From contig JBBRUX010000021.1 of the NCBI GenBank assembly GCA_038247415.1, positions 3,207 to 67,206 of the forward strand: a stretch of 64,000 nucleotides of DNA, read 5' to 3'. This stretch comes from Chitinivibrionales bacterium. GTDB taxonomy: Bacteria > Fibrobacterota > Chitinivibrionia > Chitinivibrionales > WJKA01. A model generated the notes under the pieces. That model saw only the letters and a program-made list of their open reading frames with translations, did no database searches and had not been told where the DNA came from. Made by a program: the position numbers and the translations under genes. Positions 21,600-62,998 of this stretch are shown here, one piece after another (position 1 is the stretch's first letter; each line of letters starts with the position of its first letter).

Positions 21600-23003
21600 C
21601 TATTTTTTGTAGATTTTCACAAATACTATACCATGCGTTTTTTCTAAAGCTTTAGCATAATTGGGCGAAATAGCGTGAGTTTTCGAATCAAAGACTAGTG
21701 CTCCCTTCGCATTTGTAATAAGAATATTTTTACCTAGATACGGGGCACAATCTCCCTTAAGTACATAGCGGGATGTAACTCTCTGATCATGCTGTAGTCT
21801 TGATGGCAACTTGGGAACAACAGGCGTTGCATTGCCTCCGATGAGCGGTGCCATATACGGCTCAAGCTTATCGATTTTCCATTGAACCGGGGTTTTCCAA
21901 TCATCACTAAGAATTCCGCCCGTGTCTCCAGAGTTTGGGTTAAGACACCAAAAAGTCCAGGAAATAGTTGTTCCCATATACGCAAGAAACGTATCAAACC
22001 AGATGCCTTCGCTTCCCTTAAAACTTGTTGCGTCTTTAATACCAAATTCTCCCACCAAAAGCGGTGCCTTTTTTTCCCGTGCAATATATCCAAAGGCCGA
22101 ATCCCACACCATACTCAAATTTGTTGGAAATGAAGCGTCCGTAAACCAAGTTTGATTAAATACTTCTGGCCCATATTCATGGGGTGAATACACCAATTTA
22201 GCCGGATTGCTTAAGAGTACTGGATTTGATCTAACCCCCCTGAGATTACCGCCCCACCAATACGTTGTTGCGCCATATTCCTGAACTCCCTCAACAAAAA
22301 TAAGCACATCGGCATTAGCTGCAAGAATTGCATTTCCACACCGAGTGGCTGCTTTATCCCAATCGTAAAGTACATTGCCGCTAGCCCACAGCGATCCGGT
22401 AGCAGGTCCTTTTCCATGGGGCTCATTATCAAGATCACAGCCCACCACAGTAGCATTGTTCTTATAGCGGGTTGCAAGCATAACCCAATCAGCAATCCAT
22501 TGCGCCTCGGAAGTTTTTGCGGTATACCATACTAGCTCATTCATATAGCCATCTGGTTCGCGCGAATGATTATCAAGTATTACTTTTAACCCTAATTGAC
22601 CACATGCGGAAATTATAGAATCCATAACCACCAACGCCGTTTTCCCTTGAAGTTCAGCATTCATGACATTTGTAGCACTGGGGCGGGAAGGATCATTGCC
22701 ATAAAAATTGATACTTGTAGGCATTGCGCCATCTCGCAGCATTGCATTACAAAACGGGAGCCGGATGCAATTAAACCCAAATTTTTTAACATCGGTAAGC
22801 ATGCCCTTATAATCCCGAGCCCATAAACCATGAGGACACATATTGGATGTTTCTAAACCAAACCAATTAACACCGGTAAGACGCACTTTTTGATTGTTTG
22901 CATCAAACAGATCTGAGCCGGAGGTATGCAAATAAGTGGCGCCATTTGGTAAATACATCCCTATAAGTAAGACACATGCGGTGCGTAATATCTTCAATAT
23001 CAT
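21600..23003 (-). CDS. GH5 endoglucanase (cellulase) with T9SS-type C-terminal domain
   Basis: The ATG at 23003 has AAGGA upstream; the track ORF starts at a GTG at 23018. The sequence contains VRLTGVNWFGLETSN..FNCIRLPF, the acid/base motif CDLDNEPHG and the nucleophile motif LLVGEFG. A ~60-aa basic tail ends IVFVKIYKK. Confidence 0.88.
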   Translation of the reverse strand: MILKILRTACVLLIGMYLPNGATYLHTSGSDLFDANNQKVRLTGVNWFGLETSNMCPHGLWARDYKGMLTDVKKFGFNCIRLPFCNAMLRDGAMPTSINFYGNDPSRPSATNVMNAELQGKTALVVMDSIISACGQLGLKVILDNHSREPDGYMNELVWYTAKTSEAQWIADWVMLATRYKNNATVVGCDLDNEPHGKGPATGSLWASGNVLYDWDKAATRCGNAILAANADVLIFVEGVQEYGATTYWWGGNLRGVRSNPVLLSNPAKLVYSPHEYGPEVFNQTWFTDASFPTNLSMVWDSAFGYIAREKKAPLLVGEFGIKDATSFKGSEGIWFDTFLAYMGTTISWTFWCLNPNSGDTGGILSDDWKTPVQWKIDKLEPYMAPLIGGNATPVVPKLPSRLQHDQRVTSRYVLKGDCAPYLGKNILITNAKGALVFDSKTHAISPNYAKALEKTHGIVFVKIYKK

Positions 23004-23059
23004 TTGTCTATCCTTCACTGGGCACTATTTTTAAGAATTACAGGCACTTTTGTAGTGCA

Positions 23060-25201
23060 TTAAAAAGAAATTACCTGTTTGATGGAAGTTTTTGTTTTAC
23101 GATCTTGTACAATAATTACTCCCTGAGATGTATTTCTTTTTTGTAAATTAATACTACGGAGTGGTTGTGCAGTAATTGCTCTTCCCTGCAGCGAATATGC
23201 CTGGGCCGAAAACGAATTCTCCCAAAAATTACCCCTTTGTTGTAAAGATTCTGTTTTTGAATTTGGCATTATGCCAGTTGCAATCGGCGAGGCAGAACCA
23301 AACACAAGTTTGCCATCATCATAGACAGGGATTCTTACTGAACGGATTGGCGTGGAATTTGTTAACCCAAGATACGACCAATCATTGTTCGGATTCCACC
23401 CAGAAATAGCTGCATTATCGGGAAGGCTTACGCGAAACTGTATTTCGCGCTTGTATGAATCTTGAGTACCAGGATACAAGGTATCTCCAGAATAATCGAT
23501 GAGGACATAGTACAGGTTTTTGGATTGATCTGCAACTTTCAGATCTGAGACTACTCCTTTTCCCTGAACATAATTCTTAGACACTTTTATGGCAGAAGGA
23601 GAAATACCCGCAGCAATAGCTTCGGATACATCTACATAATATCGAAAAGAAAGTTTTGAGGTGCCGCGCGCTGGCCAAGCAGTTTTATTAGAAAGCGTAG
23701 CTTTTATTTCTGTAAATCTATCACCATGGGCATTAATTGAAGCCATTACAAATAATTCTGTATCTACCACTTCTGGCGATGGAAAATTTGCCATGGGAGT
23801 ACCGCCATACTCTTTGTAAAGACGTGCCAATGTTCCCGTAAACGCGGCATTATAATCGCACGCGACTTCGTTTGTTGTATAATTATTGCGTTCATCGGTA
23901 TAATCATCTGTTTTTGTTGGTCCGCCAACTAAGGCCCCATAGAGCACATGCTTAGAGGCCGCAGTATCACTTGCCTGGCTTGGAAAAAAGCCAGTACATG
24001 TCCTGTGATGAGGATGTGTGGGAGGATTATTTCCAAAACCTACCATGAAACTTCTTTTGGTGGGATTATTTCCCAGCATATAATTGATTTGCGAAAGTGC
24101 AAAATCATGATACCGTGTTTTGAGACCGCCATCTGTAATGTAATCGGAATATATCAGTGCGCAAAAAGCAGTATTTGCAGCATATCGACACGATCCCCAC
24201 GTATCAAGCCATGCGAGGCCCCCGGGTGTATATGCAATCTTGGCTCCATTAACCCCCACGCTCCAAAAATCGAGCCATCGCTGCGCATCATCCTTGTACT
24301 GTTGCTTCCCGGTTAGTTTACTTAAAAGGACATAACAAGCGTATGATTTATCATCCCAGGATGTTGTCCATTTATACGATTTAATGGTTGACTGTGGTTC
24401 TGTTCCCAGTAAACTATAATTAGCTTCTGCCGACGATACATACGAGTTGTCATTTGTTGCCATAAAGAGCCATAATGCACTCCACACAAGCTCATCATTA
24501 TAACCGCTCCATGAATTATAGTATCCTTGCGCATCTGATATTGATGATGAATATTTTCCACGATAGGTATCTGCAAAAGTGTACAATTCTTTGGCATGTT
24601 TGAGCAGTGTATCCGCATAGAGCGGATCCGTTTGCCGCAGTACTATTGATGCTGCCGCGAGTGCAGCACAGGTTTCGCCAGCCAAATCTGTTCCCGGGTT
24701 TGCTGCGTCGATTTTATAGGCGGGGCGGCTCATGTAGTACTCAACCGACTCGGCAGGCCCCCAAAAAGCATGATCGGTTCCACCATTGCCCACTTGTCCA
24801 TACAATTCATTTGGGGCAGTATGACACTTTACAAGATAGCGTGCGGCAAATTGTATGGTATTCAAAATGGCAGTTAGTTGTCCCGATGATTGATAGGCAT
24901 CCCGGTATTCCTTTACGCCCCACGCAAGCATGGTTACGCTATACGCCATAGGAAAATTGAATTTCACATTGTCGCCTGCATCATACCATCCTCCTGTAAG
25001 ATCGTGTTCAACCGATCCACCATCATGAATACATGAGGGCCCCCGCCACATTACGCGATTCCACGAGGGCAATGATCCTGATTGCTGACATTCATAAAAG
25101 TAAATAGACTTTTGCAAAGCCTCGGCATAATTAAATGCCCCTGCCCCAAAAACGCCGCTGCTTAAAAAAAACCCCAGTGCGATTGATTGTATTCTTCTCA
25201 T
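23060..25201 (-). CDS. GH9 endoglucanase with CBM3c-like module and T9SS-type C-terminal domain
   Basis: Signal peptide. GH9 motifs are FNYAEALQKSIYFYECQQSG, DLTGGWYDAGDNVKFNFPMAY, HPHHRT, ALVGGP and NEVACDYNAAF. A CBM3-like block follows (ELFVMASINAHGDRFTEIKATLSNKTAWPARG..LSFRYYVD), then the sorting tail. Confidence 0.9.
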   Translation of the reverse strand: MRRIQSIALGFFLSSGVFGAGAFNYAEALQKSIYFYECQQSGSLPSWNRVMWRGPSCIHDGGSVEHDLTGGWYDAGDNVKFNFPMAYSVTMLAWGVKEYRDAYQSSGQLTAILNTIQFAARYLVKCHTAPNELYGQVGNGGTDHAFWGPAESVEYYMSRPAYKIDAANPGTDLAGETCAALAAASIVLRQTDPLYADTLLKHAKELYTFADTYRGKYSSSISDAQGYYNSWSGYNDELVWSALWLFMATNDNSYVSSAEANYSLLGTEPQSTIKSYKWTTSWDDKSYACYVLLSKLTGKQQYKDDAQRWLDFWSVGVNGAKIAYTPGGLAWLDTWGSCRYAANTAFCALIYSDYITDGGLKTRYHDFALSQINYMLGNNPTKRSFMVGFGNNPPTHPHHRTCTGFFPSQASDTAASKHVLYGALVGGPTKTDDYTDERNNYTTNEVACDYNAAFTGTLARLYKEYGGTPMANFPSPEVVDTELFVMASINAHGDRFTEIKATLSNKTAWPARGTSKLSFRYYVDVSEAIAAGISPSAIKVSKNYVQGKGVVSDLKVADQSKNLYYVLIDYSGDTLYPGTQDSYKREIQFRVSLPDNAAISGWNPNNDWSYLGLTNSTPIRSVRIPVYDDGKLVFGSASPIATGIMPNSKTESLQQRGNFWENSFSAQAYSLQGRAITAQPLRSINLQKRNTSQGVIIVQDRKTKTSIKQVISF

Positions 25202-25223
25202 GTGGAATATCCTTCGTGCTACG

Positions 25224-25246
25224 ATAGAGGCCTTTTAGGCCTCTAT
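25224..25246. terminator. perfect 9-bp hairpin between the two GH9 genes (no U-tract)
   Basis: ATAGAGGCC-TTTTA-GGCCTCTAT sits in the 47-nt spacer. It could attenuate, terminate or stabilise mRNA. It is not a canonical intrinsic terminator. Confidence 0.3.
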
Positions 25247-25248
25247 GA

Positions 25249-27825
25249 TTAATTTACAATTGTTACCGATTGCGAAACCCTAAAATTGGTTCCGTGCATT
25301 GAAACGGTATAAACCCCTCGTGCAAACGACTTAAGAGAAAGTGCCAAAGATTGCTCTTTACCCTCTCCAAAATTCGTTTTATATACACATCGACCAGAAA
25401 TATCACTCACAACAACACTCACCTTTTGTGGGGTTTGTAATGAGGCTCTTAGTACATTCTTATGTACCTGTATGCGGCATGCGTTTGCAGAACGTACTGC
25501 AACGTGAGGTTCATTGATTGAAGTTGCTTGTTTTTCGTCAAGGAAAGCAGCAACCCATGCAAGAGGAGCATTCCAGTTAATAGTTACTTCATTTGTAGAC
25601 CATGCTTCGATATTGTCTAGATAACATTTCTGCGCAGAGGTTCCCAAAATACCTGCCGAACGAACCCATGGGTCTTCTAACCCCGAATTTGGTCCACCAC
25701 TTATCGCCCCAGCCGGAGCTGTTGGAAAAAGGGAATTTGATTGAAAAGCCCAAAATCTGTGATGGGGATTTGCAACTGGATCTGAACCATAGCCTGTCAC
25801 ATAGGCTTTATCCATTGCATTGCGACCAAGCAGATAATCCATGCTTTCGGAAACACCATCCAGATATTTTTTATTGTTTGTAAAGTCGTATGCCAGAGCC
25901 ATGGCAAGTGCTTCATTCAAGATAAAAGAATTAGATCCCCACGGATAACCTTTTGCACCCTTTGGAATAGGCACGCGGTATCCTTCCTTACCTATAATCC
26001 CAATCCAATAATCTGATGATGCCGCAATTGCAGCACGAGCTTTGGCAATTTCCGTTGATGCGAGTGCGTTAGGAACCATAGCAAGGGTTATTGTACCACA
26101 ACCATACGTTGTACCCCATGTAAATGCTCCAGTAAGGCCATTATCTTCTCCAGCAACATCAAAAACTGTTGGCATTTTCAAATAATACGCCGAATTTTGA
26201 AGATATGTTTTATAGACATCTTTTCCTGTTGTTACAAAGAGTTCGCAGGCAGCCCAATAGAAATCATCGGTAACACAAGAATCACCATACGGCCCACCAC
26301 CAAGTTTATCGGTATTTAAAGCATACTTAGCTGGGTTTGCAATAGCGGCAAGCCATGCTATTTCTGCTGCGTCAAGGCATTTTTTCGAAAATGCAGGGTC
26401 GAGCATTTTCCAGATACGTGAGCTTGTTGCCCCAACTGCCGCTAGATTAAGTGTAGCCGCGGTGCTTGGCGGCTTAATAATTCGCTTTTCGAGATCTTGA
26501 TCGGGCCGCGTTGCCAGAGCAGTCCATTTTTCGTCGTGCATTTTATGATGCACCATTCCTGCCATGGGCTTATCTACAGGAACCTGCATCTTAAGAAGCA
26601 TCGACATTTCCCACCTACCTTCGTCGAGAATATCGGGAATACCATTTCCCTTTTCGGGAATATTCATGCTTCCATCTGCAAATGGGGCTACTACACGTGC
26701 ACCGCGAAGCGCTGCACGCTCATACTGATTCATCATTGTCCACACTGCAATTCCCCCATTGACAACGTATTTTCCATGATCTCCGGCATCATACCATCCC
26801 CCTGTGATGTCAAGCGTATACACCGATGGAATTTCAACCGTTGTGGCAATATCGGATGGATGACCAGCCGCGCGCGCCAGATCAGGTCTTGTGCAATAGG
26901 GCATTTTGATTTCTATGCCGCTACGATTATGATAGAAATACGCAAGCGCATCATACTTCAATTTTGCATAAATATTTTCTTGCACATCAAAAGGATGGCT
27001 TGTATTATTGCTACCCGGCACATTTACAGAAAGGTCATAGCCCTTGCCAGGAGTAGTAAAGCTCGAAAAATCGATAGTATGAACGGTATCACCCGAAGCT
27101 TCGTCTTTTCCAAAAACCGTGGTAGATCCCGAAGCAACAGCTGCTCCGGATCCGTTTTTGATTGTCCAGGTTAACGGTGTAGTTGAAGCGGACAACACAG
27201 TAGCATGCTTTTGCGCAAACGGTAAGTAGCCAACCTGATTTACACGAACCAATGGCTTGGGCACAGGAGGTGGTTTAATCGGCTTCGTATATTGAGGGTC
27301 GGAAAGATAAATATCATCGAGTCCAATGTCGATGGGATACGGGCTCAAAACGAGATCTCCTCCTACATGAAACGCAAATTCACACGTGGCATCAGTTGCA
27401 TCATTCATTGTAAATGTTTGCTTTATGGTAGTTGGACTATTTGCTGCAATTGAGAATGGATTCCAATTATTATTCCAATACTCTTTGTATGGCGTAGCCA
27501 TTTGACCAATTTTTGCATACACTTTAGTAGCTTTGGTGGCGCGTATTTTAAACGTTACAGTATAAGTATGCCCTTGTTGAAGAGTTAGCCCCCGGTGCCG
27601 AGTTTGTGTATCCCATCTATTAGGTACACCTTTTAAAAGCGTAATAACATACTCACCATTTACTAATGCAAAATCGGAGTTTGCTTCTTCACTTTCCGAA
27701 ACATTCCAAGGCAAAATTATGCCATCATTAAAATTATTTTGATCGAGTAATTCACCTGCGTGCCCCTGCGTGCACACCATGATGACAGCAAAGATAGTCC
27801 CACGTAGTAGAGCCCCTATTTTCAT
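25249..27825 (-). CDS. CBM4/9-like + Ig-like (CelD_N) + GH9 endoglucanase with T9SS-type C-terminal domain
   Basis: Signal peptide. The N-terminus is a CBM-like beta-sandwich. The Ig-like module is VRVNQVGYLPFAQKHATVLS. GH9 motifs are DITGGWYDAGDHGKYVVNG, NPHHRFW, ISGGPN and STNEVTINWNAPLAW. The tail is VSVVVSDISGRCVYKTNFGEG..ARGVYTVSMHGTNFRVSQSVTIVN. Confidence 0.9.
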   Translation of the reverse strand: MKIGALLRGTIFAVIMVCTQGHAGELLDQNNFNDGIILPWNVSESEEANSDFALVNGEYVITLLKGVPNRWDTQTRHRGLTLQQGHTYTVTFKIRATKATKVYAKIGQMATPYKEYWNNNWNPFSIAANSPTTIKQTFTMNDATDATCEFAFHVGGDLVLSPYPIDIGLDDIYLSDPQYTKPIKPPPVPKPLVRVNQVGYLPFAQKHATVLSASTTPLTWTIKNGSGAAVASGSTTVFGKDEASGDTVHTIDFSSFTTPGKGYDLSVNVPGSNNTSHPFDVQENIYAKLKYDALAYFYHNRSGIEIKMPYCTRPDLARAAGHPSDIATTVEIPSVYTLDITGGWYDAGDHGKYVVNGGIAVWTMMNQYERAALRGARVVAPFADGSMNIPEKGNGIPDILDEGRWEMSMLLKMQVPVDKPMAGMVHHKMHDEKWTALATRPDQDLEKRIIKPPSTAATLNLAAVGATSSRIWKMLDPAFSKKCLDAAEIAWLAAIANPAKYALNTDKLGGGPYGDSCVTDDFYWAACELFVTTGKDVYKTYLQNSAYYLKMPTVFDVAGEDNGLTGAFTWGTTYGCGTITLAMVPNALASTEIAKARAAIAASSDYWIGIIGKEGYRVPIPKGAKGYPWGSNSFILNEALAMALAYDFTNNKKYLDGVSESMDYLLGRNAMDKAYVTGYGSDPVANPHHRFWAFQSNSLFPTAPAGAISGGPNSGLEDPWVRSAGILGTSAQKCYLDNIEAWSTNEVTINWNAPLAWVAAFLDEKQATSINEPHVAVRSANACRIQVHKNVLRASLQTPQKVSVVVSDISGRCVYKTNFGEGKEQSLALSLKSFARGVYTVSMHGTNFRVSQSVTIVN

Positions 27826-28022
27826 ATGTATCCTCTTTTTTGTAAGTGATTTTTACTAAATAATTAGGACTTAAAAAACGTCGTGCTCTTTCCTCCTCAT
27901 AAAAATCTTAAAAAATTGTGATACCACGTTGTTTTAATGCATATACTAGCCATGATTGCTCTCAAAAGATACACTCCCAAGTCTTTTACTGCTTGCTTAT
28001 TTGAGCACTTTTTACATTTATA

Positions 28023-28046
28023 GGTGGCATGTTTGCCACCATTTTT
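28023..28046 (+). terminator. orphan intrinsic-terminator-like hairpin
   Basis: GGTGGCA-TGTT-TGCCACC followed by ATTTTT. No plus-strand gene lies upstream; it is 167 nt upstream of the TIGR02147 gene start. Confidence 0.4.
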
Positions 28047-28212
28047 GTCCTATATATACTTTATTTGTTTGTATATTATTGAACGATTCTTTAGAATTTC
28101 GTTTAAAAGAGTTGTTTTTTTAATTATATTATTATAGTATTGAGAAGTCCTCAGATTACATTTTGATTGATTTTATATAAAAGATGTCACCACTTTGGCA
28201 CTAGCAAACACT

Positions 28213-29076
28213 ATGAAACCTATTTTCGAATACCTTGACTACCGACCTTTTCTTGCAGACTTCTACGAAGAACAAAAGAAGGGCAACTACTTTTATTCGT
28301 ATCGTTATATGGCAGGCAAGCTGGATATGGATCATAGTCAGCTTATAAAGATTCTCAATGGCACACGACACATCACAGAACTACACATTAAGCCAATTGC
28401 TGTATTGTGCCATCTTGCTAATCGTCAAGCACAATTTCTAGAAGCGCTGGTGCAATTTTGCAAGGCAAAAACAGAACGGCAGGAAAAGATATTTTTTGAA
28501 AGAATGCTCGCGCTTAAAAGCTATGAATCACAAACCCTCGAAGCTTATCAATTCGAATATTTTCAAAAATGGTATTACGCAGCAATTCGATCGCTTCTGG
28601 ATTACTTCAAATATAAGGGCGATAACGAACGCCTTGCCAAGGCACTCAATCCTGCCATTACAACCGCCCAGGCAAAAAAAGCAATCGATTTACTTTTAAA
28701 ACTTAATTTAATCCAAAAAGAAGCATCGGGACACTATATTCCTACTCAAGCTCACGTAAGTACTGGAGAATCGTGGCAGGGCAGGGCAATCGAAACATAT
28801 CAAAAAGAAACAATCGAACTTTCGGCAACAAGCATCGATCGTTCTCAAAAAAATGAGCGGGATATATCTTCTATAACGATGTCTGTGGACAAGGAATGCT
28901 TCGAAGATATCTCCCGGCTCACAAAAGAATTTAGGGCATCAGTAATTAAAAGGGTTAACGAAATCCCAATTAATACTACCGATCGAGTTTACCAAATGAA
29001 CATACAAATAATTCCACTTACAACCATTTTAACAAATTTGGATGTTCCCATTCCGCAAGGGAATACAGAGCCATGA
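28213..29076 (+). CDS. TIGR02147-family (Fibrobacter-type) HTH protein
   Basis: The ATG at 28213 gives MKPIFEYLDYRPFLADFYEEQKKGNYFYSYRYMAGKLDMDHSQLIKILNGTRHIT. This matches the remembered N-terminal pattern of TIGR02147 proteins (Y.DYR.FL.D.Y...K......S.R.fa...g..s...l..vi.G.R.l). The track ORF starts at a TTG at 28195. Confidence 0.7.
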   Translation: MKPIFEYLDYRPFLADFYEEQKKGNYFYSYRYMAGKLDMDHSQLIKILNGTRHITELHIKPIAVLCHLANRQAQFLEALVQFCKAKTERQEKIFFERMLALKSYESQTLEAYQFEYFQKWYYAAIRSLLDYFKYKGDNERLAKALNPAITTAQAKKAIDLLLKLNLIQKEASGHYIPTQAHVSTGESWQGRAIETYQKETIELSATSIDRSQKNERDISSITMSVDKECFEDISRLTKEFRASVIKRVNEIPINTTDRVYQMNIQIIPLTTILTNLDVPIPQGNTEP

Positions 29077-30743
29077 GAATACTTTCTGCACTCCTTTGTT
29101 TTGCCGTATGCGCATTACTTGCGTGCAGCCATAGCACTACTCTTTCGGGCGGTACCACAACAGAAACCACCAATGGGCTCACTGCATGCGTTCGTTATGC
29201 CGATGGGTCGCTTGCTGCCAACGCGATAATTTCAATTCGTCCGCAACTATATTTGCGCGGGATTGATACTGTTAGCACCGCCGATTCAAACGATGCAGTA
29301 ACATCCTCAAAAGGCATGTTTGTAGTGGGAGGATTACGGGCAGGAATGTACCGCCTAACCATTCTAACCCGCGATTCTCTCTTTGGTGCAAGCATCTCAG
29401 ATCTTTCTCTGGGAAAAGGAGCAAACTCCAAAGCGGATACTATTCAGATCGATACCATTATTCTTGAGCATACTGGTTCTCTTGCTGGATTTATACCCTT
29501 CGATAGCTCAACAAGCGCACCACGTGTTGTCCTTCGTCTTTACGGAACAGATTTTATTGACACCATTAATCCTGGTACCCGATTTGTCTACGCTGGTTTT
29601 GCACCAAGCAGCTATCTTCCGGCTGTATCAATTAACAGGTTGCCTAGCTTTTCAATAGATACCGTACAAGTTCTCGCACATGATACCGCCATACTTACAG
29701 GTGCTCCTTTTTTTAATCCAACTGCCTTTGCAGGCAATAAAAAAATTCTGGTCAATACCTCGCAAAGCGGAACGCTCCTCACAACAGATGTCACGCAGTT
29801 TCCGCTTTTAGTGCGTCTTAACTCTACCGACCCCACAGATTCTGCTATCTTTGTGCATTCACCTAATTCTAATTATATCCAATTTTTTTCTAACGATTCG
29901 ATCCCTTTACAATTTGAAGTCGAAGAATGGGACACCCTAGCCTCACCAAAAACAGCCTGTTTTTGGGTAAAAGTCCCCACACTCTATGCAAATGATTCGA
30001 TTCAGGCGATACACCTTTATTATGGGATTTACACAAAACCCTCCCACCCAACCCTGCGTCTATTTGACAAAGGCTATGGCTATTCTGCGGTGTGGCACCT
30101 TTGCGAAAAAAGCAGAGACTCTCTTTACGACGCAACAGGAACCGTAACCCTTGTGTCGTCATTTTCTCAACGCCAACCGGGACCTGCCCTTATTGCAGGT
30201 GGACAAAAATTAAATGGGGTATCACAGTATATTGACGGAGGCGATTTTAATTATTTTAACGGGGCCACTTCCTTCACTATTTCGATGTGGGTAAATGCCG
30301 ACACATTCCCTTTTGAGATGATTCATCTAACCTCCACAGCTGGATTGCCTCAAGAGCTCAATCGCGCGTCGTTAACCATCGATAGCCTTGGGAACATAAT
30401 CGCCTACGGCTCAAATAGTGATTCATCGAGATCACTACTCACGGCGTATAGCACATCAAAACTATCTACTCATACATGGTACTTAATAAGTGGCATTTTT
30501 ATGTTTGCTTCAGATTCTATCGTCATTAATGTTAACGGTACCGAGGCTCCCACTCTCCGCAGTGGAACAATGGGCAGCGTGCAAGGCTCAGGTATCACTA
30601 CTGCACCTGTAAAGTGCTCAATCGGCTACGACCCATTACAGCACAGCGGTTATTCTAAGGGCACGCTCGATGAAATAAGAATGTTTCGTTCTGCACTCTC
30701 AGCCGATTGGCTAAAGCTATGCTATACAAGCCAGCTACCATAA
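29073..30743 (+). CDS. lipoprotein with DUF2341-like and LamG/concanavalin-like domains
   Basis: The start forms an ATGA overlap with the upstream gene. The lipoprotein signal is MRILSALLCFAVCALLACS. The DUF2341-like block is TQFPLLVRLNSTD..IQFFSNDSIPLQFEVEEWDT..ACFWVKVPTL..IHLYYG. The LamG-like block is AVWHLCE..LNGVSQYIDGG..TSFTISMWVNAD..GTLDEIRMF. Confidence 0.72.
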   Translation: MRILSALLCFAVCALLACSHSTTLSGGTTTETTNGLTACVRYADGSLAANAIISIRPQLYLRGIDTVSTADSNDAVTSSKGMFVVGGLRAGMYRLTILTRDSLFGASISDLSLGKGANSKADTIQIDTIILEHTGSLAGFIPFDSSTSAPRVVLRLYGTDFIDTINPGTRFVYAGFAPSSYLPAVSINRLPSFSIDTVQVLAHDTAILTGAPFFNPTAFAGNKKILVNTSQSGTLLTTDVTQFPLLVRLNSTDPTDSAIFVHSPNSNYIQFFSNDSIPLQFEVEEWDTLASPKTACFWVKVPTLYANDSIQAIHLYYGIYTKPSHPTLRLFDKGYGYSAVWHLCEKSRDSLYDATGTVTLVSSFSQRQPGPALIAGGQKLNGVSQYIDGGDFNYFNGATSFTISMWVNADTFPFEMIHLTSTAGLPQELNRASLTIDSLGNIIAYGSNSDSSRSLLTAYSTSKLSTHTWYLISGIFMFASDSIVINVNGTEAPTLRSGTMGSVQGSGITTAPVKCSIGYDPLQHSGYSKGTLDEIRMFRSALSADWLKLCYTSQLP

Positions 30744-30756
30744 CGTCGGCTTTTTT
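30730..30756 (+). terminator. weak intrinsic terminator of the DUF2341/LamG gene
   Basis: GCCAGC-9 nt-GTCGGC (one mismatch, one G-T pair) followed by TTTTTT. The stem overlaps the stop codon. Confidence 0.35.
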
Positions 30757-30759
30757 ATG

Positions 30760-30975
30760 TCAAGTGGGTTAGGGAGTACGAAATGTGACGGTGTAAACGG
30801 AGTGCCCCCGGCAGTACGTGAGGTCTCAGGCGCATAAGCGCCGCAAGAACGAGCGTACCGGCTTGCGAAGCAAGAGCGTAGGAGGAGCCGCATCGGAACA
30901 TACCCCAAGGGTACTTCCTTTGGGCGCCCGAAGGGGTGAGGCCCAACAGCGAAGCCGAAACGCCCAAAATCTTGA
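30760..30975. repeat. GC-rich hairpin-dense element, copy 1 (candidate structured ncRNA or MITE-like repeat)
   Basis: GC-rich island in an AT-rich spacer, colinear with 62824-62960. Hairpins are GGCGC-ATAA-GCGCC (30829-30842), CTTGC-GAA-GCAAG (30862-30874), TACCC-CAA-GGGTA (30901-30913), GGGC-g-CCC-GAA-GGG-gtgag-GCCC (30922-30944) and CAGC-GAA-GCCG (30947-30957). Confidence 0.5.
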
Positions 30976-31016
30976 TTTGTCACCACTCTATCAATCCCTC
31001 AACGTATATTAATTTC

Positions 31017-31178
31017 ATGTCAAGAAAAAAGCTCATCATGATTGGGATGGTTGTAGGATCTCTGTTGGGGGGTTTTGTTGTCTCCCTTTTTGGAGCGGGT
31101 GCATTTTCATTTACTTCACTGATTGCAAGTTCAATTGGTGGATTACTCGGCATCTTTATCGTTTTCAAGTATACATAA
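31017..31178 (+). CDS. 53-aa Gly-zipper small membrane protein
   Basis: The internal ATG at 31017 gives MSRKKLIMIGMVVGSLLGGFVVSLFGAGAFSFTSLIASSIGGLLGIFIVFKYT with two TM segments. The track ORF 30936.. extends back into the GC-rich element. Confidence 0.55.
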   Translation: MSRKKLIMIGMVVGSLLGGFVVSLFGAGAFSFTSLIASSIGGLLGIFIVFKYT

Positions 31179-41868: not shown

Positions 41869-42318
41869 TTGCATGCGCGTATCGCTAATAGTGCCCCCAT
41901 GATAATGATTGACGTGCGAACAGCTTCTGAATATCAATCGGGCCATATTGCTAACACTTCATTGCACACGTGGGTAAGCCCAACAGTTTCCGACTGGCAA
42001 TCCCTGCCGTCTGGTACCGATATTGTTGTAATTTGTCAATCTGGAAACCGCGCAGGGGCGGCATCTGTTTTTTTAGATACTGCTGGTTCAAATAAATTTG
42101 CGGGGCATGTTCTGCGTATGACCGGAGGGATGACTTCCTGGTCTGCCAAGTATGCAGTTGTTGCACTTAAAGAAACTTTGGCGCGGGCGTCGGGCTCTTT
42201 TGCAGCTGCGCACGTGCAAACAAATACCTACGATCTCTCTGGCAAAGTATATCATGCACATCCAACATCTCGACGTACTCTTTTAACTTTTCAGAACAAG
42301 AAAATCATCAAGCACTAA
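41869..42318 (+). CDS. rhodanese-domain protein (true start probably upstream of the annotated TTG)
   Basis: The rhodanese domain reads MIDVRTASEYQSGHIAN..VVICQSGNRAGAA with the active-site loop CQSGNR. The in-frame upstream sequence encodes a signal-peptide-like KIVFAGLVVATSISPLAAF. Confidence 0.75.
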   Translation: MHARIANSAPMIMIDVRTASEYQSGHIANTSLHTWVSPTVSDWQSLPSGTDIVVICQSGNRAGAASVFLDTAGSNKFAGHVLRMTGGMTSWSAKYAVVALKETLARASGSFAAAHVQTNTYDLSGKVYHAHPTSRRTLLTFQNKKIIKH

Positions 42319-45300
42319 AATGTAAGTCGAACACTTCCTTTAAATGAGTGCTGTTCAGTTTTGGAACTTAAAAGTTCATCGTTATTATGTGTAAACGAAT
42401 ATGAAATCGTACTAACTACATTATCAGTAAAATCGTAACTTACATGCGGTGTGAGCGAAAAGTTGTTAGTATTACGCAATTCGGCCTTGCCCCCTTCTGG
42501 AATTGAATCAGTATAATTCTCCCAGCTATGTTTGTATTCCGCCTCTGCTCCCATAACCACGCGGCCCTTGATAGAGATTGTATATTTGAGCAGTTTAATA
42601 TCACGGGCAATTCCCGATTTTTCTATAGTATAAGCAGTACTCCATTTATTTCCTACTTCGGTTGCTTTAGAGCGGCGTGCAGTAGAAGCGACGAGAATAT
42701 CGGAATTAGATAGATTAATATCGTATGAGAGGGAGATTGGCAATGCTTTGATTATTGACGAAACGCCAACCAGCGGAGACCAACCGTTTCTAATCTCTTC
42801 ACCATACTGGTATTCTACTTTTAATATATTGTCCCGCCTAACCGACGTTGTATTCTTTTTAGAATAACTATACGACGAGCGAAGCGTTGGAGTTTCTAAA
42901 TTATCCTGTACCACCTTGAGCTGGCTTAGCATCCCACTGGATGCAGATATGCCTAATCGCGGAGACGTTATTGCGGTATCGAGTGAGCTGAGTGGATTTG
43001 CTGGAACAGTAAATGATTTTTCAAAGTCCAAACTTATTTCAGAAAATTGGATGTCAATTGGTTTTGGAAATGAGAGAGAGGCGGTAGACCATTTCCAATT
43101 TTGCGTGGTTGTACGTTTATCATTTGTTGCATTGGGCATAATCCCGCCGTTTGCAGCAAGTCGACTCTCTGTGCCGCCAAAACCGCGTGGATTATCCATT
43201 GTGCCTTTTATTCGACTTAAAAAAGGCCTACTTCCCATAAAACCTAAACTATAGCGCATAAGGCCAAAACCACCCCAGTTTTTGTCAATCATTTCGATAT
43301 CATCAACTGAATACAACCCATTGAGCAAACTTAACCTTCCTGTATAAGTCACTGATATCGACGAAAAATTAACTTGATCGAGCATTGCACCAAATTGCTT
43401 AAATGTTGTTGTTAAGAATGCGGATCGCTGTGTTGCCAAGGTTGCATCACGAACCCAATCTCGAATATTTACATTGCCAGAAAATCCAAACGAATTATCA
43501 AGCGCAAGCGTAAGCTTTGTTCCGGCAGCTTTGCGATCGGGAGTAGCTGTATAATTAGACGTATAATCGAAATTATTATCAAGCCATGAAATAAGTTTTG
43601 GATTAAACTTTAAGCTGGTATTTTGCGTGCGCGAATCTTCTCCCATAAAAAACCATAACGTTGACAAAGCTTCGTCCCGAGCAAAGAAAACATCTCGTGC
43701 GGATTGAGTTTGCGAAAGATACGGTGCAAGGTTTCGCGCAGAGTTTAGGGAATAATCTAGTGACAACAAAGGGGAAATAGGAGCCCAACCAAAGGTAAAA
43801 CCATGCCCAGCCGAAAAACTTCTAGAATCGTCGTAAATCGGGGTACTTTCGAAATGCTTTTGGGCAACACTCCAGTTTATTGTTGCAATAGTAAGCGAAA
43901 AGCGGGAGGGCAAAAGCATTACCTCGTACCTTTTAAAATCTTCTGGAAGCCACGCGAGCGTGTCTGTATCCATAAAACCAAAAGGCCGCCATTTGGCCCA
44001 CTCTGGCTGATTACGTGGTGTTAAATCGTAGGTAAGGCCACCGCCATACGAGGTGTTTCGCGTGGTATCAACATAATCTCCAAAACCGCTTGGTTTAGAA
44101 CCCTGCGATGCTTTTGTTTCATTAAACTGGTAGGTTACATTTTCTATACCAACACGTTCTGTTAATAAATTAATAAAGATGTTATCTGAAGAAGATTTGT
44201 GATAACTTGTTGAAAGTGATGTTGTAGCAGTTGACGTTTGATAATGACGAGAGCGAGACTCTGCGAGAGAACCAAATCTGTTTGGCACCACATTCTGGAC
44301 CAGATCATGATACATGTCCCCTAAATTGTCTGGTTCCCCCGGAGATTTTGTGAGAGTAATATCCGTTCCTGGGCGAAGTTGCGGTCTATCGAGGGTACTG
44401 GTTACTGCAGCTGCAACGGGAATTGACACTTTCCACTCGTCGGGTAAAAACTTATCAAATTTAAGGCTCCCGTCCATTCCCACCGTAACACGAGAATTAT
44501 TACGAGATCGTGCATCATCGGTCATGGTTCTAAAGTTGCCATCTCGATAATCCATAGAACCTCGCAAAGACACAAAGTCTGCCCACTGGGTAGAAATAGA
44601 TGCAATTGCAGCGGTACCAGAAATCGATTTAAGTCCCGAAGCTTTTAATTCATCTACCCATATTTCTCCGGACGAAACGGCATTGCCATACCCCAAGCGA
44701 GACACTCCAACCGTCAGTTGACGAATAGACGAAAAGCTGGGAACTCCCTTATTGCGAGAATAAATGCGTAAGGTATCCCCAGGTTTAGGACTATATGCTT
44801 TATTGATCGATAAGAATGCAGGATATTGCTCGAAATAGCGCAGTTTTTGAGAAGCTAGCTCTGCAAGGTCAATTTCAATAGGATGGCTCCACGGGGAGTC
44901 ATAGTTCCAACCTGTTCGTATAGGAGTTTTGTACTCATAATAAGTCGAATCGTTTGTTCCAAACCTTAAAACCAAATAAAGAGAATCGTTGGGAACAAGT
45001 GTCTTTCCATGAACAAGCATGGTAATTTTATCGTAGGGAGATATATCGATATTGCCATAGGTTAGAATTTTTCTGGCTACCACGCTTTTGTTTTGTTCAA
45101 CATTGGTATAGCTAATAAGCAGTGATTGTTCTTTGGTTAGAATATTATTGGCATCTCGCGTTCTAATCAGGTACGGTTCTGTAGGCGCAACATAAATGCT
45201 CTTGTCATCTTCGGTATTTACTACTGAGACATTTACAAGGTTATTTGTTCCTCTTAAATCGGGGGCACTTTTATACCCGCTATCGGCAGAAAGTGCTTCC

Positions 45301-48300
45301 CATTGACTACCAACAAATTGCATGCGTATAAGTTGGAGACTACGAATACCAGAATTCTCTAAACCAAATTTTTTCCTACTCATTCGCACAAAGCCAATAC
45401 GTTCCCAAGAAGGGGTCCCATGAATCGTGTCAACTTTTGAGGTAACTTTATTGAGGGGGATTCTTATTAAATACCAGCCCTTTTCCTTTCGCGCGCGAGA
45501 AGCGGTAACAACATAGTTGGCTGTATCGAGACTATCGAGATTAATTGTCATGCGATAATAATTATCGTTAATCCGCTTGAATCCATCCCCATTAATATCC
45601 TCGGTATTGGCATAAATAGCAGAAGCCGATGAATTTTCCGCATTTCCTTGTAAATGACAAACGTTAGCATACTCCTTATACCTGTAAGTAGATGTCAACG
45701 AGTAGGGTTTCCAATTGTCATTGCTTGGATCTGTCGGATCAGGCAACTTGGGGTCTCCATACAAAAGAGTATCATACCTTTTGCTCGGATCAGCTCCCGG
45801 GATTAAAAACGTTTCCTTTTTATCATCGAGGATATTATCGAGCCCGGTATTAAGGTCTGCTGTCATGATCCCATTTTGTGCAGTATCTTCTGTATTGAAT
45901 CTAACATTAGGCGCTGCTCCGGCAATGCAGATATCTTCGCTCACCATTCCCAAATCTACAAGAAGTTTTCCACGCGTACTTTCGTTTGGGTCAACTTTCA
46001 TATAAAATTCGAAAAATTTATCCTGGGTGCGATTTTCCGCCGATTTCGGAAGCCAGGTCATAATTGACGACCAAGAATTGTCATACCGGCTTTTAAATTC
46101 ATTATCAGGTGCAGGCTGAGTCTCCCAAAAAAGGGCCGACTCATATAAATTTGAAGCACTACTCCCAATCTTGTAAAGATTAGAAACCTCCTCTTTTGTT
46201 AAGCTATCCACATCTTCTTTACGCACTCTATGACTCTCATCGGTTCCATCGCCAGGTGCTTCGAACCAATATGTTTTCCAAGCAGGAGGATGATAATACA
46301 AGCTGTCCAATGGAACGGGGGGGCTCCCCATATACCACATTGTAGTAGTAGTAGGTAAGGTATACACAATCTTAGCAGATTCAAAATCATCGATATATGC
46401 TTCGCCATTCTTATTAGTTACCGCTTGAATGGGCGAGGTAATACTGTGAGCTGCTTCTATATCTATTTTTACCGAAGACGGTGATTCCGAATGAACAAGA
46501 GGGATTGCATTAACCGCCTTGGTCATCCATTCTGGCTCATAATCAATACTTGTATTTATGTCAAGTAGTAGCTTATTATACGGCTCCTGACCAACACGGG
46601 GAATTTTTTCTCCTGTAAGCGATGCATTTTGAAACAGGATTGATGCGCCTACCAAAGAATTTTTTCCTATGGTTGGTAGCTTAAGCTCGGCCCTTGATCC
46701 AATAAAAGTTTTATTATCGGGAACACCCGTTTCGCGCTGATAGGTGGTCACTATTTTTGGTGACGCTTTTGCCTGATTCGACAACAACTCTATAAATCCC
46801 GTTTCGGGAGTTATTCTATAGTCAACATCACGCACCAGATCAATGTTACCCGGAGATGTCCTTACCTTATCTGATCCTGAAATAATGGGAGAACTTAAAT
46901 TAAAGCTCGTTTTATTTGCTGCAGTAGAAAGCCCCTTCAAATGAAAAGAAAAGCGCTGTTCAAGGTTTGCAAAATCGGTAGATGATTTTTTTAAGGCGTA
47001 AATGGCGGGCGCTTGGGACCCTGCATCAAGCTCGGGATTTACAAAAGGCTGTGCACCATTCGTTCCATCAGAAAATGGAGGGATAATAAAATAACCCGAA
47101 TCGGGCCTACAAACAAAACCACCTATGGGTTGATTTTTGCTATCGGTAAGGCCCAAAAGCTGAGCAATATCTTTTCCCTTTTCGGTAGTCCTGCGCCCAT
47201 CAAGCTGTCCGGGCAAAGGCAATTGATACACCTCTAGCGAAAAGCTCCCGGAATAACTCTGCATTTGATATACGTTTTTCCACATTAGTTTATAGCCAGG
47301 CGCGGTTGTATCATTATTAGGCTTGGTAATAAACCATAGTCCTGTGGTTGTGTCACCTTGTGTAAGAACGACGGCTTTAGTAGCGGCTTCTGTAATAGTA
47401 AACGTGAGTCCAACCTCATCTTGTTCAGTAATATTAGTTTTAAAGCTAATATAGCCTCGTTGACGATCAAGACTATAATCGGCATCGGGAACCAATTTGC
47501 GGTATTTAGTCCCATTTATTGTTTTGCGTACAATATCTGCTGTCTGCACAGTACCATTATCAATAATCCAGGCACTAAAACTGGTTATTTGTTTACTTGC
47601 AGGTACTGGAATATTTCCCGCGCGATACACCTGATAATTTTTAAGGTAATAATTTTGATACATAGTATCTAAAAAGTAAAATTTATACGGCCAATACGAT
47701 TTTTCTGATGTGCTTGTATCAACGTTAGACGATGCCGATTGCGCAAGTGAAACAGAATCGGCTGCGGATTGTGCTTGCATATGACTAATAATAGTATTTA
47801 CCGTAACTGGCCCAAATTTAGATTTTACCGATAAGCCAAACAAACCTTGTTGACTTTCGCTATATCCCGATAATTTTGTTGACGGAAGCTCAAAACGAGT
47901 ATACCCCGCAGTCACTTCCTGAATGATATCGTCTTCGAGTTCGTTTCCCTCTCCTTTGTATTCGAGCTTAATATCTTTAAGGGGGTTTGTAAAAGCAAAA
48001 TCCTCGGCGTTGCTTGTTTTAAGCGTCACGTTAATGAGGCGCCCAACACTGCCCGTTACCGAAAGTTCATATTTATTATCGAAATCAGGATTTTTATTTA
48101 TCACTGGCTCCGCCTTACCAATTGTACGCTTCGAGACATCCCCACCAAAGATCACTTCTTCAAAACCATGGATTGCAAGCTTTGGCGGATCTTTCCCCAG
48201 GATTCTTTTTGCCCACGAAGGATATTGTACTGGTAATTCGAGGTCCAGTGAAAAACTACGCCCCTTATTAGCAGTACCTGCTGATTTAGGCGTTGCATTT

Positions 48301-48653
48301 TGCTGAAACCATGCTTGACTAACTGCAAAATCCCTTCTGCTTTGTATATATTCATCAAGTTCGGGATAGCGATATTGCCATATGATATTTCCCATTTTAT
48401 CTATTTTTTGAAACGTAATTTGTCGGCTTTCGAAATCGATAGTTTGCGAATCGGCAAAAATAGAAGAAGGTTTTGGTTTAAGTAGTGCGGATCGTGGATT
48501 TTTAAGCGGATTAAGCGGAGCAAGATCTTTATCGAGCGGGTAATACCCAGGAATAGCAGGATCGGACCATACAATGCCAGCGGCGTTAAGCGCAACACAA
48601 AATGGCGCAAAAACACCCACTGCGGCTACACATACGAGTCGTAGAAAAATCAT
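42315..48653 (-). CDS. sprA: T9SS outer-membrane translocon SprA/Sov
   Basis: 2112 aa with a signal peptide. The core block ELEDDIIQEVTAGYTRFELPSTKLSGYSESQQGLFGLSVKSKFGPVTVNTIISHMQAQS matches the remembered SprA signature (EDDIIkkIEaGNVs.PL...LI.GsQsLFG.K..lqFG.l.vT.v.SqQks). The protein is beta-rich throughout and ends with an aromatic residue (..VRLTF), as outer-membrane barrels do. Confidence 0.8.
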   Translation of the reverse strand: MIFLRLVCVAAVGVFAPFCVALNAAGIVWSDPAIPGYYPLDKDLAPLNPLKNPRSALLKPKPSSIFADSQTIDFESRQITFQKIDKMGNIIWQYRYPELDEYIQSRRDFAVSQAWFQQNATPKSAGTANKGRSFSLDLELPVQYPSWAKRILGKDPPKLAIHGFEEVIFGGDVSKRTIGKAEPVINKNPDFDNKYELSVTGSVGRLINVTLKTSNAEDFAFTNPLKDIKLEYKGEGNELEDDIIQEVTAGYTRFELPSTKLSGYSESQQGLFGLSVKSKFGPVTVNTIISHMQAQSAADSVSLAQSASSNVDTSTSEKSYWPYKFYFLDTMYQNYYLKNYQVYRAGNIPVPASKQITSFSAWIIDNGTVQTADIVRKTINGTKYRKLVPDADYSLDRQRGYISFKTNITEQDEVGLTFTITEAATKAVVLTQGDTTTGLWFITKPNNDTTAPGYKLMWKNVYQMQSYSGSFSLEVYQLPLPGQLDGRRTTEKGKDIAQLLGLTDSKNQPIGGFVCRPDSGYFIIPPFSDGTNGAQPFVNPELDAGSQAPAIYALKKSSTDFANLEQRFSFHLKGLSTAANKTSFNLSSPIISGSDKVRTSPGNIDLVRDVDYRITPETGFIELLSNQAKASPKIVTTYQRETGVPDNKTFIGSRAELKLPTIGKNSLVGASILFQNASLTGEKIPRVGQEPYNKLLLDINTSIDYEPEWMTKAVNAIPLVHSESPSSVKIDIEAAHSITSPIQAVTNKNGEAYIDDFESAKIVYTLPTTTTMWYMGSPPVPLDSLYYHPPAWKTYWFEAPGDGTDESHRVRKEDVDSLTKEEVSNLYKIGSSASNLYESALFWETQPAPDNEFKSRYDNSWSSIMTWLPKSAENRTQDKFFEFYMKVDPNESTRGKLLVDLGMVSEDICIAGAAPNVRFNTEDTAQNGIMTADLNTGLDNILDDKKETFLIPGADPSKRYDTLLYGDPKLPDPTDPSNDNWKPYSLTSTYRYKEYANVCHLQGNAENSSASAIYANTEDINGDGFKRINDNYYRMTINLDSLDTANYVVTASRARKEKGWYLIRIPLNKVTSKVDTIHGTPSWERIGFVRMSRKKFGLENSGIRSLQLIRMQFVGSQWEALSADSGYKSAPDLRGTNNLVNVSVVNTEDDKSIYVAPTEPYLIRTRDANNILTKEQSLLISYTNVEQNKSVVARKILTYGNIDISPYDKITMLVHGKTLVPNDSLYLVLRFGTNDSTYYEYKTPIRTGWNYDSPWSHPIEIDLAELASQKLRYFEQYPAFLSINKAYSPKPGDTLRIYSRNKGVPSFSSIRQLTVGVSRLGYGNAVSSGEIWVDELKASGLKSISGTAAIASISTQWADFVSLRGSMDYRDGNFRTMTDDARSRNNSRVTVGMDGSLKFDKFLPDEWKVSIPVAAAVTSTLDRPQLRPGTDITLTKSPGEPDNLGDMYHDLVQNVVPNRFGSLAESRSRHYQTSTATTSLSTSYHKSSSDNIFINLLTERVGIENVTYQFNETKASQGSKPSGFGDYVDTTRNTSYGGGLTYDLTPRNQPEWAKWRPFGFMDTDTLAWLPEDFKRYEVMLLPSRFSLTIATINWSVAQKHFESTPIYDDSRSFSAGHGFTFGWAPISPLLSLDYSLNSARNLAPYLSQTQSARDVFFARDEALSTLWFFMGEDSRTQNTSLKFNPKLISWLDNNFDYTSNYTATPDRKAAGTKLTLALDNSFGFSGNVNIRDWVRDATLATQRSAFLTTTFKQFGAMLDQVNFSSISVTYTGRLSLLNGLYSVDDIEMIDKNWGGFGLMRYSLGFMGSRPFLSRIKGTMDNPRGFGGTESRLAANGGIMPNATNDKRTTTQNWKWSTASLSFPKPIDIQFSEISLDFEKSFTVPANPLSSLDTAITSPRLGISASSGMLSQLKVVQDNLETPTLRSSYSYSKKNTTSVRRDNILKVEYQYGEEIRNGWSPLVGVSSIIKALPISLSYDINLSNSDILVASTARRSKATEVGNKWSTAYTIEKSGIARDIKLLKYTISIKGRVVMGAEAEYKHSWENYTDSIPEGGKAELRNTNNFSLTPHVSYDFTDNVVSTISYSFTHNNDELLSSKTEQHSFKGSVRLTF

Positions 48654-62558: not shown

Positions 62559-62721
62559 ACAATACCACCTTGTAAACTATGAAATGGTCTGATGCAATCT
62601 GTATGAGCACCTGTGTTCGTAATAAATAGATTATTCCGAGCATATTATTCGGTAGATAATAATTGTAAAATTACGGGATGAAGATAACAAGGGGAATTAA
62701 AAAAGGGGCCAGGTGAGATAT

Positions 62722-62960
62722 CTGATTCAAAATCTGGGCGCCGCGGTTGCCACCGTCGGCCCTTCGACGAGCTCAGGGCGGTGCTGAAGGGAAACAGAAG
62801 TGACACCCCTCAGTGCAAAAATACTCAGGCGCTTTGCGCCGCAAGGATTTTTGTACCGGCTCGCGAAGCGACGATGCTTCTGAGTACACCCCTACGGGTG
62901 TTCCGCGGCGGCTCCCGAAGGGGTGAGGCCCGACGGGGAACCCGGAACGCCCAAAATCTT
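62722..62960. repeat. GC-rich hairpin-dense element, copy 2, fused to a CCCTTCGAC..CTCAGGG motif
   Basis: 62824-62960 is colinear with 30824-30975. Upstream lie an 8-bp bulged hairpin GCCGCGGT-TGCC-ACCGtCGGC (62740-62760) and the motif CCCTTCGACGAGCTCAGGG (62760-62778). Confidence 0.5.
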
Positions 62961-62998
62961 ATCTTGCTGAATTGTCAACTAATCTTTTACCTATCTTC

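Follow-up and report, generated by a model that had tools for sequence, protein, structure and literature searches.

What is the GC-rich, hairpin-dense element that occupies two intergenic spacers of a Fibrobacterota genome, and to which known elements, if any, is it related? We focus here on a stretch of 64,000 nucleotides from a Chitinivibrionales bacterium (contig JBBRUX010000021.1, positions 3,207 to 67,206), referred to as the window. The host belongs to a deep-branching Fibrobacterota lineage near Chitinivibrionia and Chitinispirillaceae; the nearest CheA is 55–56% identical and the nearest LamG protein 35%. Genes in the window have ordinary chromosomal functions (cellulases, glycosyltransferases, chemotaxis and two-component proteins). 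Two long open reading frames, both on the minus strand, encode 2112 aa (42315–48653) and 1000 aa (1616–4618), the latter without a Pfam match. A preliminary description had singled out a two-copy candidate for an undescribed structured RNA or single-stranded DNA element. Copy 1 lies within the 273-nt spacer that runs from the stop codon of a DUF2341/LamG gene at 30743 to the ATG of a 53-aa membrane-protein open reading frame at 31017, both gene positions being as originally given. Copy 2 lies within a spacer of 440 nt whose neighbours, a 269-aa gene and cheA, are both encoded on the minus strand.

Two homologous copies and their predicted structure

The two copies are homologous by nhmmer (E = 4e-16 to 1e-17), from ~30797 to ~30979 and from ~62795 to ~62966, in the same orientation in the window. 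The colinear, same-orientation alignment proposed earlier for 30824–30975 is thus real, but its extent is somewhat longer, and AT-rich tails reaching ~31012 in copy 1 and ~62998 in copy 2 are weakly similar. The five identical blocks and the stem substitutions that had been quoted are also present, and a GC-rich, hairpin-dense element in two copies is indeed what the window contains. The GC content of the conserved cores (Table 1) compares with 0.427 for the window and 0.32–0.34 for the adjoining spacers. A covariance model built from both copies, R1, gives the two scores listed in Table 1 and detects no third copy in the 64-kb window. The longest identical block, the 18-mer CCCGAAGGGGTGAGGCCC, occurs at two sites only in the window with up to three mismatches allowed, the chance expectation being 0.

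Open reading frames that cross the element are in different frames in the two copies, with no frame common to both. The one that spans copy 1 on the minus strand has no relative in the protein database, so that no further copies could be reached through miscalled proteins. The element is best regarded as non-coding, as had been supposed, and for annotation this means that such elements draw spurious open reading frame calls, of 64–83 aa here. The statement that it matches no known non-coding RNA family holds as well: Rfam cmscan, run on the whole window at the gathering score and on both copies at E ≤ 10, returned only snoR53Y and MIR319 noise. A metagenome scan with the pattern GGGGTGAGGCCC-N10-20-AACGCCCAAAA gave one locus, which is unrelated. 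Viral contigs contained no match to the 18-mer or to the pattern of blocks 2 and 3, a plasmid and phage search gave no match, and a literature search by sequence string found nothing. Applied to 131 fetched loci, R1 recovered only the core region; full-length alignments were weak (E ≥ 1e-4) and mostly to unrelated terminator hairpins.

Table 1. Positions of the element, its parts and its flanks in the window
Feature	Position	Strand	Remarks
Copy 1, whole putative inserted segment	30765..31012	+	set by the flanking direct repeat; 248 nt, GC 0.556
Copy 1, GC-rich conserved core	30797..30979	+	nhmmer ~1e-16; R1 200.7 bits; GC 0.615
Copy 2, GC-rich conserved core	62795..62966	+	nhmmer; R1 185.2 bits; GC 0.602
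18-nt core CCCGAAGGGGTGAGGCCC, copy 1	30927..30944	+	at least 100 repeat units of other phyla have an identical core
18-nt core CCCGAAGGGGTGAGGCCC, copy 2	62914..62931	+	exact match
Identical block CTCAGGCGC	starts 30825 (copy 1), 62824 (copy 2)		
Identical block GCGCCGCAAG	starts 30838 (copy 1), 62836 (copy 2)		
Identical block GTACCGGCT	starts 30855 (copy 1), 62853 (copy 2)		
Identical block CCCGAAGGGGTGAGGCCC	starts 30927 (copy 1), 62914 (copy 2)		longest block
Identical block AACGCCCAAAATCTT	starts 30959 (copy 1), 62946 (copy 2)		
5′ domain, copy 1	30814..30858	+	P1 around H1 (GGCGC-ATAA-GCGCC, 30829–30842), with CTCAGGCGC and GCGCCGCAAG
H2, copy 1	30862..30874	+	CTTGC-GAA-GCAAG, contains a GCGAAGC minihairpin; against copy 2, one pair compensated and one broken
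H3, copy 1	30900..30914	+	(A)TACCC-CAA-GGGTA(C), GGAAC just before; one pair compensated
3′ module, copy 1	30919..30968	+	stem TTTGGGCG/CGCCCAAA, an 8-bp perfect inverted repeat
Direct repeat, left, TTTTATGTCAAG	30753..30764	.	P = 0.0025 against shuffled flanks
Direct repeat, right, TTTCATGTCAAG	31013..31024	.	includes the start codon of the 53-aa gene (ATG at 31017)
5′ extension, copy 2	62739..62775	+	degenerate inverted copy of the sequence that surrounds its own 18-mer
CAAAATCT, copy 2	62728..62735	.	8-nt direct repeat of the 3′ block 62952–62959; not significant alone

A secondary structure was drawn by hand on the pairwise alignment and consists of P1, H1 to H5 and P5, with 36 pairs. It pairs in 91.7% of cells, 6 cells being broken over the two copies, where slid controls pair in only 28–44%, and unpaired conserved blocks alternate with variable stems. 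P1 is a further compensated stem, missed earlier, which encloses the GGCGC hairpin H1. Its sequence is nearly all different between the copies (ACGTG.. against AAAAA..) in the same pairing register; 3 of its 10 pairs are compensated, and H1 is invariant. This 5′ domain is present in the minimum-energy fold of both copies. Further downstream, H4 is CCC-GAA-GGG, H5 is CAGC-GAA-GCCG in copy 1 and P5 is a short closing stem. Inside the closing stem of the 3′ module, copy 1 reads CCC-GAA-GGG, GTGA, a hairpin (GGC..GCC or CAGC-GAA-GCCG) and GAAA. In both copies, the 5′ strand of H3, (C/T)ACCCC, is also complementary to the GGGGTG of the 18-mer (30901–30939 and 62887–62925). On this model, H3 and H4 can refold to one long hairpin, which would give the element two alternative conformations.

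A structure of this kind could belong to a lineage-specific, dedicated structured RNA gene family, either an sRNA or a cis-acting leader or 3′UTR element, read from the plus strand and selected for its fold. Changes on both sides with pairing kept, found in 6 of the 36 pairs and spread over four helices (P1, H2, H3 and H5), speak for such a gene, as do the overall pairing, the conserved unpaired blocks between variable stems, the recurrence of P1 and H1 in both minimum-energy folds and the lack of both a conserved frame and a known family. Against it, only two sequences are compared, and equal covariation is reached by 11 of 500 shuffles. Stem covariation from two sequences is suggestive and is no proof of structure. 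The fold z-scores are −1.5 (plus strand) and −1.7 (minus strand) for copy 1, so that ~5–8% of shuffles fold as well, and −3.0 and −2.9 for copy 2. A longer stretch of copy 2, 62700–62975, reaches −4.36, because its 5′ extension is a degenerate inverted copy of its own 3′ module. Of the compensatory stems in the preliminary description, the paired changes stand, but their weight is reduced by the number of sequences, the shuffles and the modest folds. Nor do G-U pairs favour a strand: two are seen on the plus strand, and two A.C mismatches would be G-U pairs on the minus strand. A 9-bp minus-strand helix between blocks 1 and 5 was also considered; it has four G-U pairs, is invariant and competes with H1, and it was not adopted.

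An 18-nucleotide core in a wider repeat family

The 18-mer links the element to repeats in other bacteria. In an exact-match scan of the genome collection, with one genome per species, it was found in at least 118 stretches, where ~17 would be expected by chance. A single architecture is seen in ~100 of the 122 instances analysed among the matches listed: a variable hairpin, GAA-C, a GC-rich hairpin, GC, CCCGAAGGGG, UGA, a GGCCC-loop-GGGCC hairpin and GAAUAA, with a closing stem that often encloses all of these. In an alignment of 37 units of other taxa, the 18-mer forms the invariant block, and repeats that bear the core occur in Gammaproteobacteria, Acidobacteriota and others. Both window copies carry the core, CCCGAAGGGG-UGA-GGCCC, exactly. 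The window 18-mer has turned out to be the core that stays unchanged through a family with at least 100 members, which cannot reasonably be coincidence. To call the element undescribed was too strong, since its longest block coincides exactly with the core motif of the family that includes tRNA-linked repeats and RtT RNA.

Several Gammaproteobacteria have units whose closing stem repeats the T-stem and acceptor 3′ end of the tRNA gene that immediately precedes them. Rfam calls these tRNA-adjacent units RtT RNA (RF00391), one of them (L063) at 66 bits in the same search that missed the window. RtT RNA carries the 18-mer on its transcribed strand, in the same orientation as in the window. First described in 1978 in E. 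coli, tRNA-linked repeats lie in tRNA and rRNA operons and are defined by an 18–19-nt copy of the upstream tRNA or rRNA 3′ end; transcription of the unit yields an RNA that is processed, and the function of these repeats is unknown (PMC8144298). RF00391 covers a small part of the core-bearing family, because most core-bearing units have no Rfam match at E ≤ 0.1, as was found for units at seven loci (L007, L012, L016, L017, L049, L062 and L095). In E. coli genomes, matches to an enterobacterial core-bearing unit carry no annotation.

The contexts in which the core is found are varied. At L068 (4990–5241), and at three other loci (L003, L004 and L084), a core-bearing unit interrupts the T-loop of a copy of tRNA-Arg(CCG); tRNA copies that hold the unit in this way are otherwise complete. 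The layout at L068 is ..GCAGGTTCGA, ~80 nt, ATCCTGCC.., with an intact tRNA-Arg directly after, and tRNA-Ser-like copies are arranged similarly. These split T-loops suggest that the unit or its vehicle targets tRNA T-loops. In Intestinirhabdus alba (L001, 7323–7471; L022, 6440–6574), the core unit sits in a ~150-nt element with imperfect 25–33-nt terminal inverted repeats (TATACCC...GGGTATA); it is repeated at many loci within one genome and has a MITE-like appearance. Tandem arrays bearing the core are found at L095. Five loci of Geothrix and other Holophagaceae (L016, L039, L047, L051 and L099) have 150–250-nt GC-rich intergenic repeats with GAA-capped hairpins and the 18-mer, away from tRNA genes and in some cases at the same position in two genomes. 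The 18-mer also occurs outside repeat units. Two loci on Gaiellaceae-type contigs (L005 and L093) have a common non-repeat context, and at three loci on Acidimicrobiia-type contigs (L053, L061 and L118) it apparently falls in a conserved coding region.

How far does the resemblance to tRNA-linked repeats extend? Like the E. coli repeats, including RtT RNA of the tyrT operon, the window element is non-coding, GC-rich and made of short hairpins. Over 18 nt, its CCCGAAGGGG-UGA-hairpin-GAA(U)A matches the most frequent form of the family core exactly, and the core of copy 1 is likewise enclosed by a closing stem. Around this core, copy 1 keeps the family order: GGAAC, a hairpin, the core hairpin, UGA, a GGC..GCC hairpin, GAAA and the stem TTTGGGCG/CGCCCAAA. 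R3, a family-core model from which the window was left out, was run on 21 sites that hold the 18-mer. It ranks copy 1 first of the 21 (19.7 bits) and aligns it as GAAC..GGC-core-GGC..GCCGAA; copy 2 scores 17.3 bits, and the 18-mer in unrelated contexts 11.5–18.6 bits. Family members and random-context controls could not be told apart by the length of the closing stem around the core. A likeness of the upstream sequence to Geothrix and Marinobacter-type units (ACCGGCTGCGAAGCAG, GGAGGAAC) is convincing by eye and was rejected as not significant, Smith-Waterman comparison with dinucleotide shuffles giving P = 0.17 and 0.08. Outside the 18-mer, no significant similarity to the tRNA-linked-repeat family was found.

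The differences are equally clear. First of all, RF00391 has no match in the window at the gathering score, or in either copy at E ≤ 10. Second, neither a tRNA (ARAGORN) nor an rRNA (Rfam) gene is found in the 64 kb, the neighbours being protein-coding. Third, the 3′ ends read ...CGCCCAAAATCTT followed by an AT-rich tail, with no T-stem, acceptor or CCA sequence after either copy. Fourth, 12–13 nt lie between the upstream hairpin and the core, a position at which tRNA-linked units have GC. Finally, the 5′ domain, comprising P1, H1 and the GTACCGGCT block, is not known from tRNA-linked repeats and has no counterpart in the 131 fetched loci. We thus do not file the element as RtT RNA or as a tRNA-linked repeat, because the tRNA linkage, the tRNA 3′-end copy and the RF00391 match are all missing, and we place it with the wider hairpin-rich repeats that carry the core. 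That it is nevertheless a true tRNA-linked repeat, or the decayed relic of one left after loss of the associated tRNA gene, would account for the exact core and for the order of GAAC, hairpin, core, hairpin, GCCGAA and closing stem retained in copy 1. It would also fit a CCCTTCG upstream in copy 2 that is complementary to CGAAGGG and recalls the long-range helix of RF00391. With the first three and the last of the differences set against these points, we regard such an origin as highly improbable.

Also comparable are the I. alba, L095 and Geothrix repeats, which are likewise free-standing and intergenic, with the same 18-mer amid GAA- or GNRA-capped hairpins. These repeats have many copies per genome, in contrast to the two known here, in 64 kb, and their sequence outside the core is unrelated to that of the window element. 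The terminal inverted repeats of the I. alba element, clear over 25–33 nt, also have no clear equivalent at the ends of the window copies.

Evidence for insertion and the competing explanations

Several features of the two sites bear on how the element arrived. On either side of copy 1 stands one unit of a 12-nt direct repeat, the two units differing by one mismatch; a flank match of equal length is obtained in 0.25% of shuffles. Deleting 30765–31024, that is 248 nt and one repeat, would place the ATG of the 53-aa gene 14 nt after the LamG stop codon, a compact junction. This direct repeat looks like an insertion footprint. No flanking duplication was found at copy 2, and neither copy has clear terminal inverted repeats. 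Copy 2 has instead a 5′ extension (Table 1) with inverted matches to its own 3′ part, an 8-nt CGCCGCGG complementary to 62903–62910 and an 11-nt CCGTCGGCCCT complementary to 62926–62936; copy 1 contains no comparable inverted matches. Relative to the neighbouring genes, the orientations are opposite. Copy 1 runs in the same direction as both flanking plus-strand genes, and copy 2 is antisense to both flanking minus-strand genes. No promoter-like or terminator-like site is common to both copies, and no transposase, integrase, reverse transcriptase, RAYT or IS200/IS605-type gene was found in the 64 kb.

Comparison with the nearest relatives also speaks for insertion. The spacer after the LamG gene is 8–104 nt long there and 273 nt here, and cheA adjoins a STAS gene with no spacer of this kind. 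The element is absent from both sites in these relatives, which are too distant (CheA 55–56%, LamG 35%) to serve as empty sites. Distant relatives (L129–L131) keep the order of GH5 cellulase, GH9, (GH9), DUF4423 and DUF2341/LamG genes found at 21600–30743 in the window, and the gene after LamG differs among them. Independent Logan contigs of the same sample, SRR19962012 (L119 and L120), end inside copy 1 (at 30915) and copy 2 (at 62852). These breaks fit repeats that tangle the assembly graph, and could equally reflect low coverage at GC-rich hairpins.

What do these observations imply for the dedicated RNA gene suggested by the compensated stems? Such a gene could draw on the orientation of the 18-mer, which in RtT RNA lies on the transcribed strand in the direction seen here. 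However, the neighbours and the relative orientation differ between the copies, and there is thus no common cis target; the absence of a shared promoter or terminator, the lack of a favoured strand and the direct repeat flanking copy 1 also count against it. We consider a dedicated RNA gene unlikely. Insertion of a repeat is favoured over it because of the opposite relative orientation, the absence of a shared promoter or terminator, the direct repeat at copy 1 and the inverted copy at copy 2. The earlier proposal of a structured RNA survives in its hairpins, but as a gene in its own right it is less favoured than an inserted repeat.

The second part of that proposal was that the element acts as single-stranded DNA. 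In this case, GAA-triloop hairpins would be recognised by an HUH/RAYT-type enzyme, or by replication or recombination proteins, in the manner of REP sequences and REPINs, and RNA would be irrelevant. The oligonucleotide d(GCGAAGC) is an unusually stable DNA minihairpin. Each copy has three triloop hairpins of the C-GAA-G or G-GAA-C type (H2, H4 and H5), and GCGAAGC itself occurs at 30865, 30949 and 62863. The hairpins form equally on both strands, the orientation is independent of the neighbours, and the partial inverted copy at copy 2 resembles a REPIN-like doublet. On the other hand, GCGAAGC is found 8 times elsewhere in the window and is thus not diagnostic. The window lacks a RAYT or IS200/IS605-type gene, the element, with its ~180 nt, greatly exceeds REP units in length and complexity, and the related tRNA-linked repeats are transcribed and processed as RNA (PMC8144298). 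Taken together, these points make an action purely as single-stranded DNA distinctly unlikely in our view.

The element nonetheless resembles REP/BIME, ERIC and similar bacterial hairpin repeats. All are small, non-coding palindromic units that lie in spacers of co-directional genes, in either orientation, with stems maintained by compensatory change. REP elements act as RNA structure after co-transcription. REP units are 20–40 nt long, have a conserved head of the GTAG type, occur in hundreds of copies and are tied to RAYT genes. In contrast, the element described here is ~180–250 nt long, has at least six helices, is seen in two copies and has no RAYT gene in the window.

Proposed explanation and its significance

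The explanation that we prefer, and to which we give about an even chance, is that both copies are a non-coding, non-autonomous repeat of ~180–250 nt that was inserted at two unrelated intergenic sites, and whose hairpins and invariant junction are recognised. The repeat would consist of short GC-rich hairpins, mostly with GAA triloops, and its 3′ module would be a version of the conserved RtT-type junction, made up of the CCC-GAA-GGG hairpin, UGA, a second hairpin, GAA(A) and the closing stem. Its movement or copying would be due to an enzyme whose gene lies elsewhere in the genome. Its hairpins, chiefly the invariant 18-nt junction, may be recognised either on DNA during spread or on co-transcribed RNA. 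Within a transcript, by analogy with REP elements, it might form a stable structure with an influence on processing, decay or read-through. A role as a ligand sensor or as a base-pairing regulator would not be expected of such an inserted repeat.

A broader proposal, which we offer tentatively and consider doubtful, is that the 18-nt core and its hairpins form an ancient, horizontally spreading structured module that is read by one conserved cellular or element-encoded factor. The core resembles a junction with tandem G.A pairs and is unchanged, base for base, in Fibrobacterota, Acidobacteriota, Bdellovibrionota and Gammaproteobacteria. The vehicles of such a module would be tRNA 3′-end duplications, insertions into tRNA T-loops, MITE-like elements and tandem arrays.

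On its own, the window element is an ordinary two-copy, hairpin-rich repeat, and its interest comes from the link to the core of the tRNA-linked repeats. If the core is indeed a spreading module, the Fibrobacterota element would be a new vehicle with a 5′ domain of its own, and comparison of the vehicles would show what tRNA-linked repeats do, a question that has been open since 1978. Furthermore, if one factor reads the core, a lineage in which the core is uncoupled from tRNA genes would help to separate the features that belong to the core from those that belong to its tRNA context.
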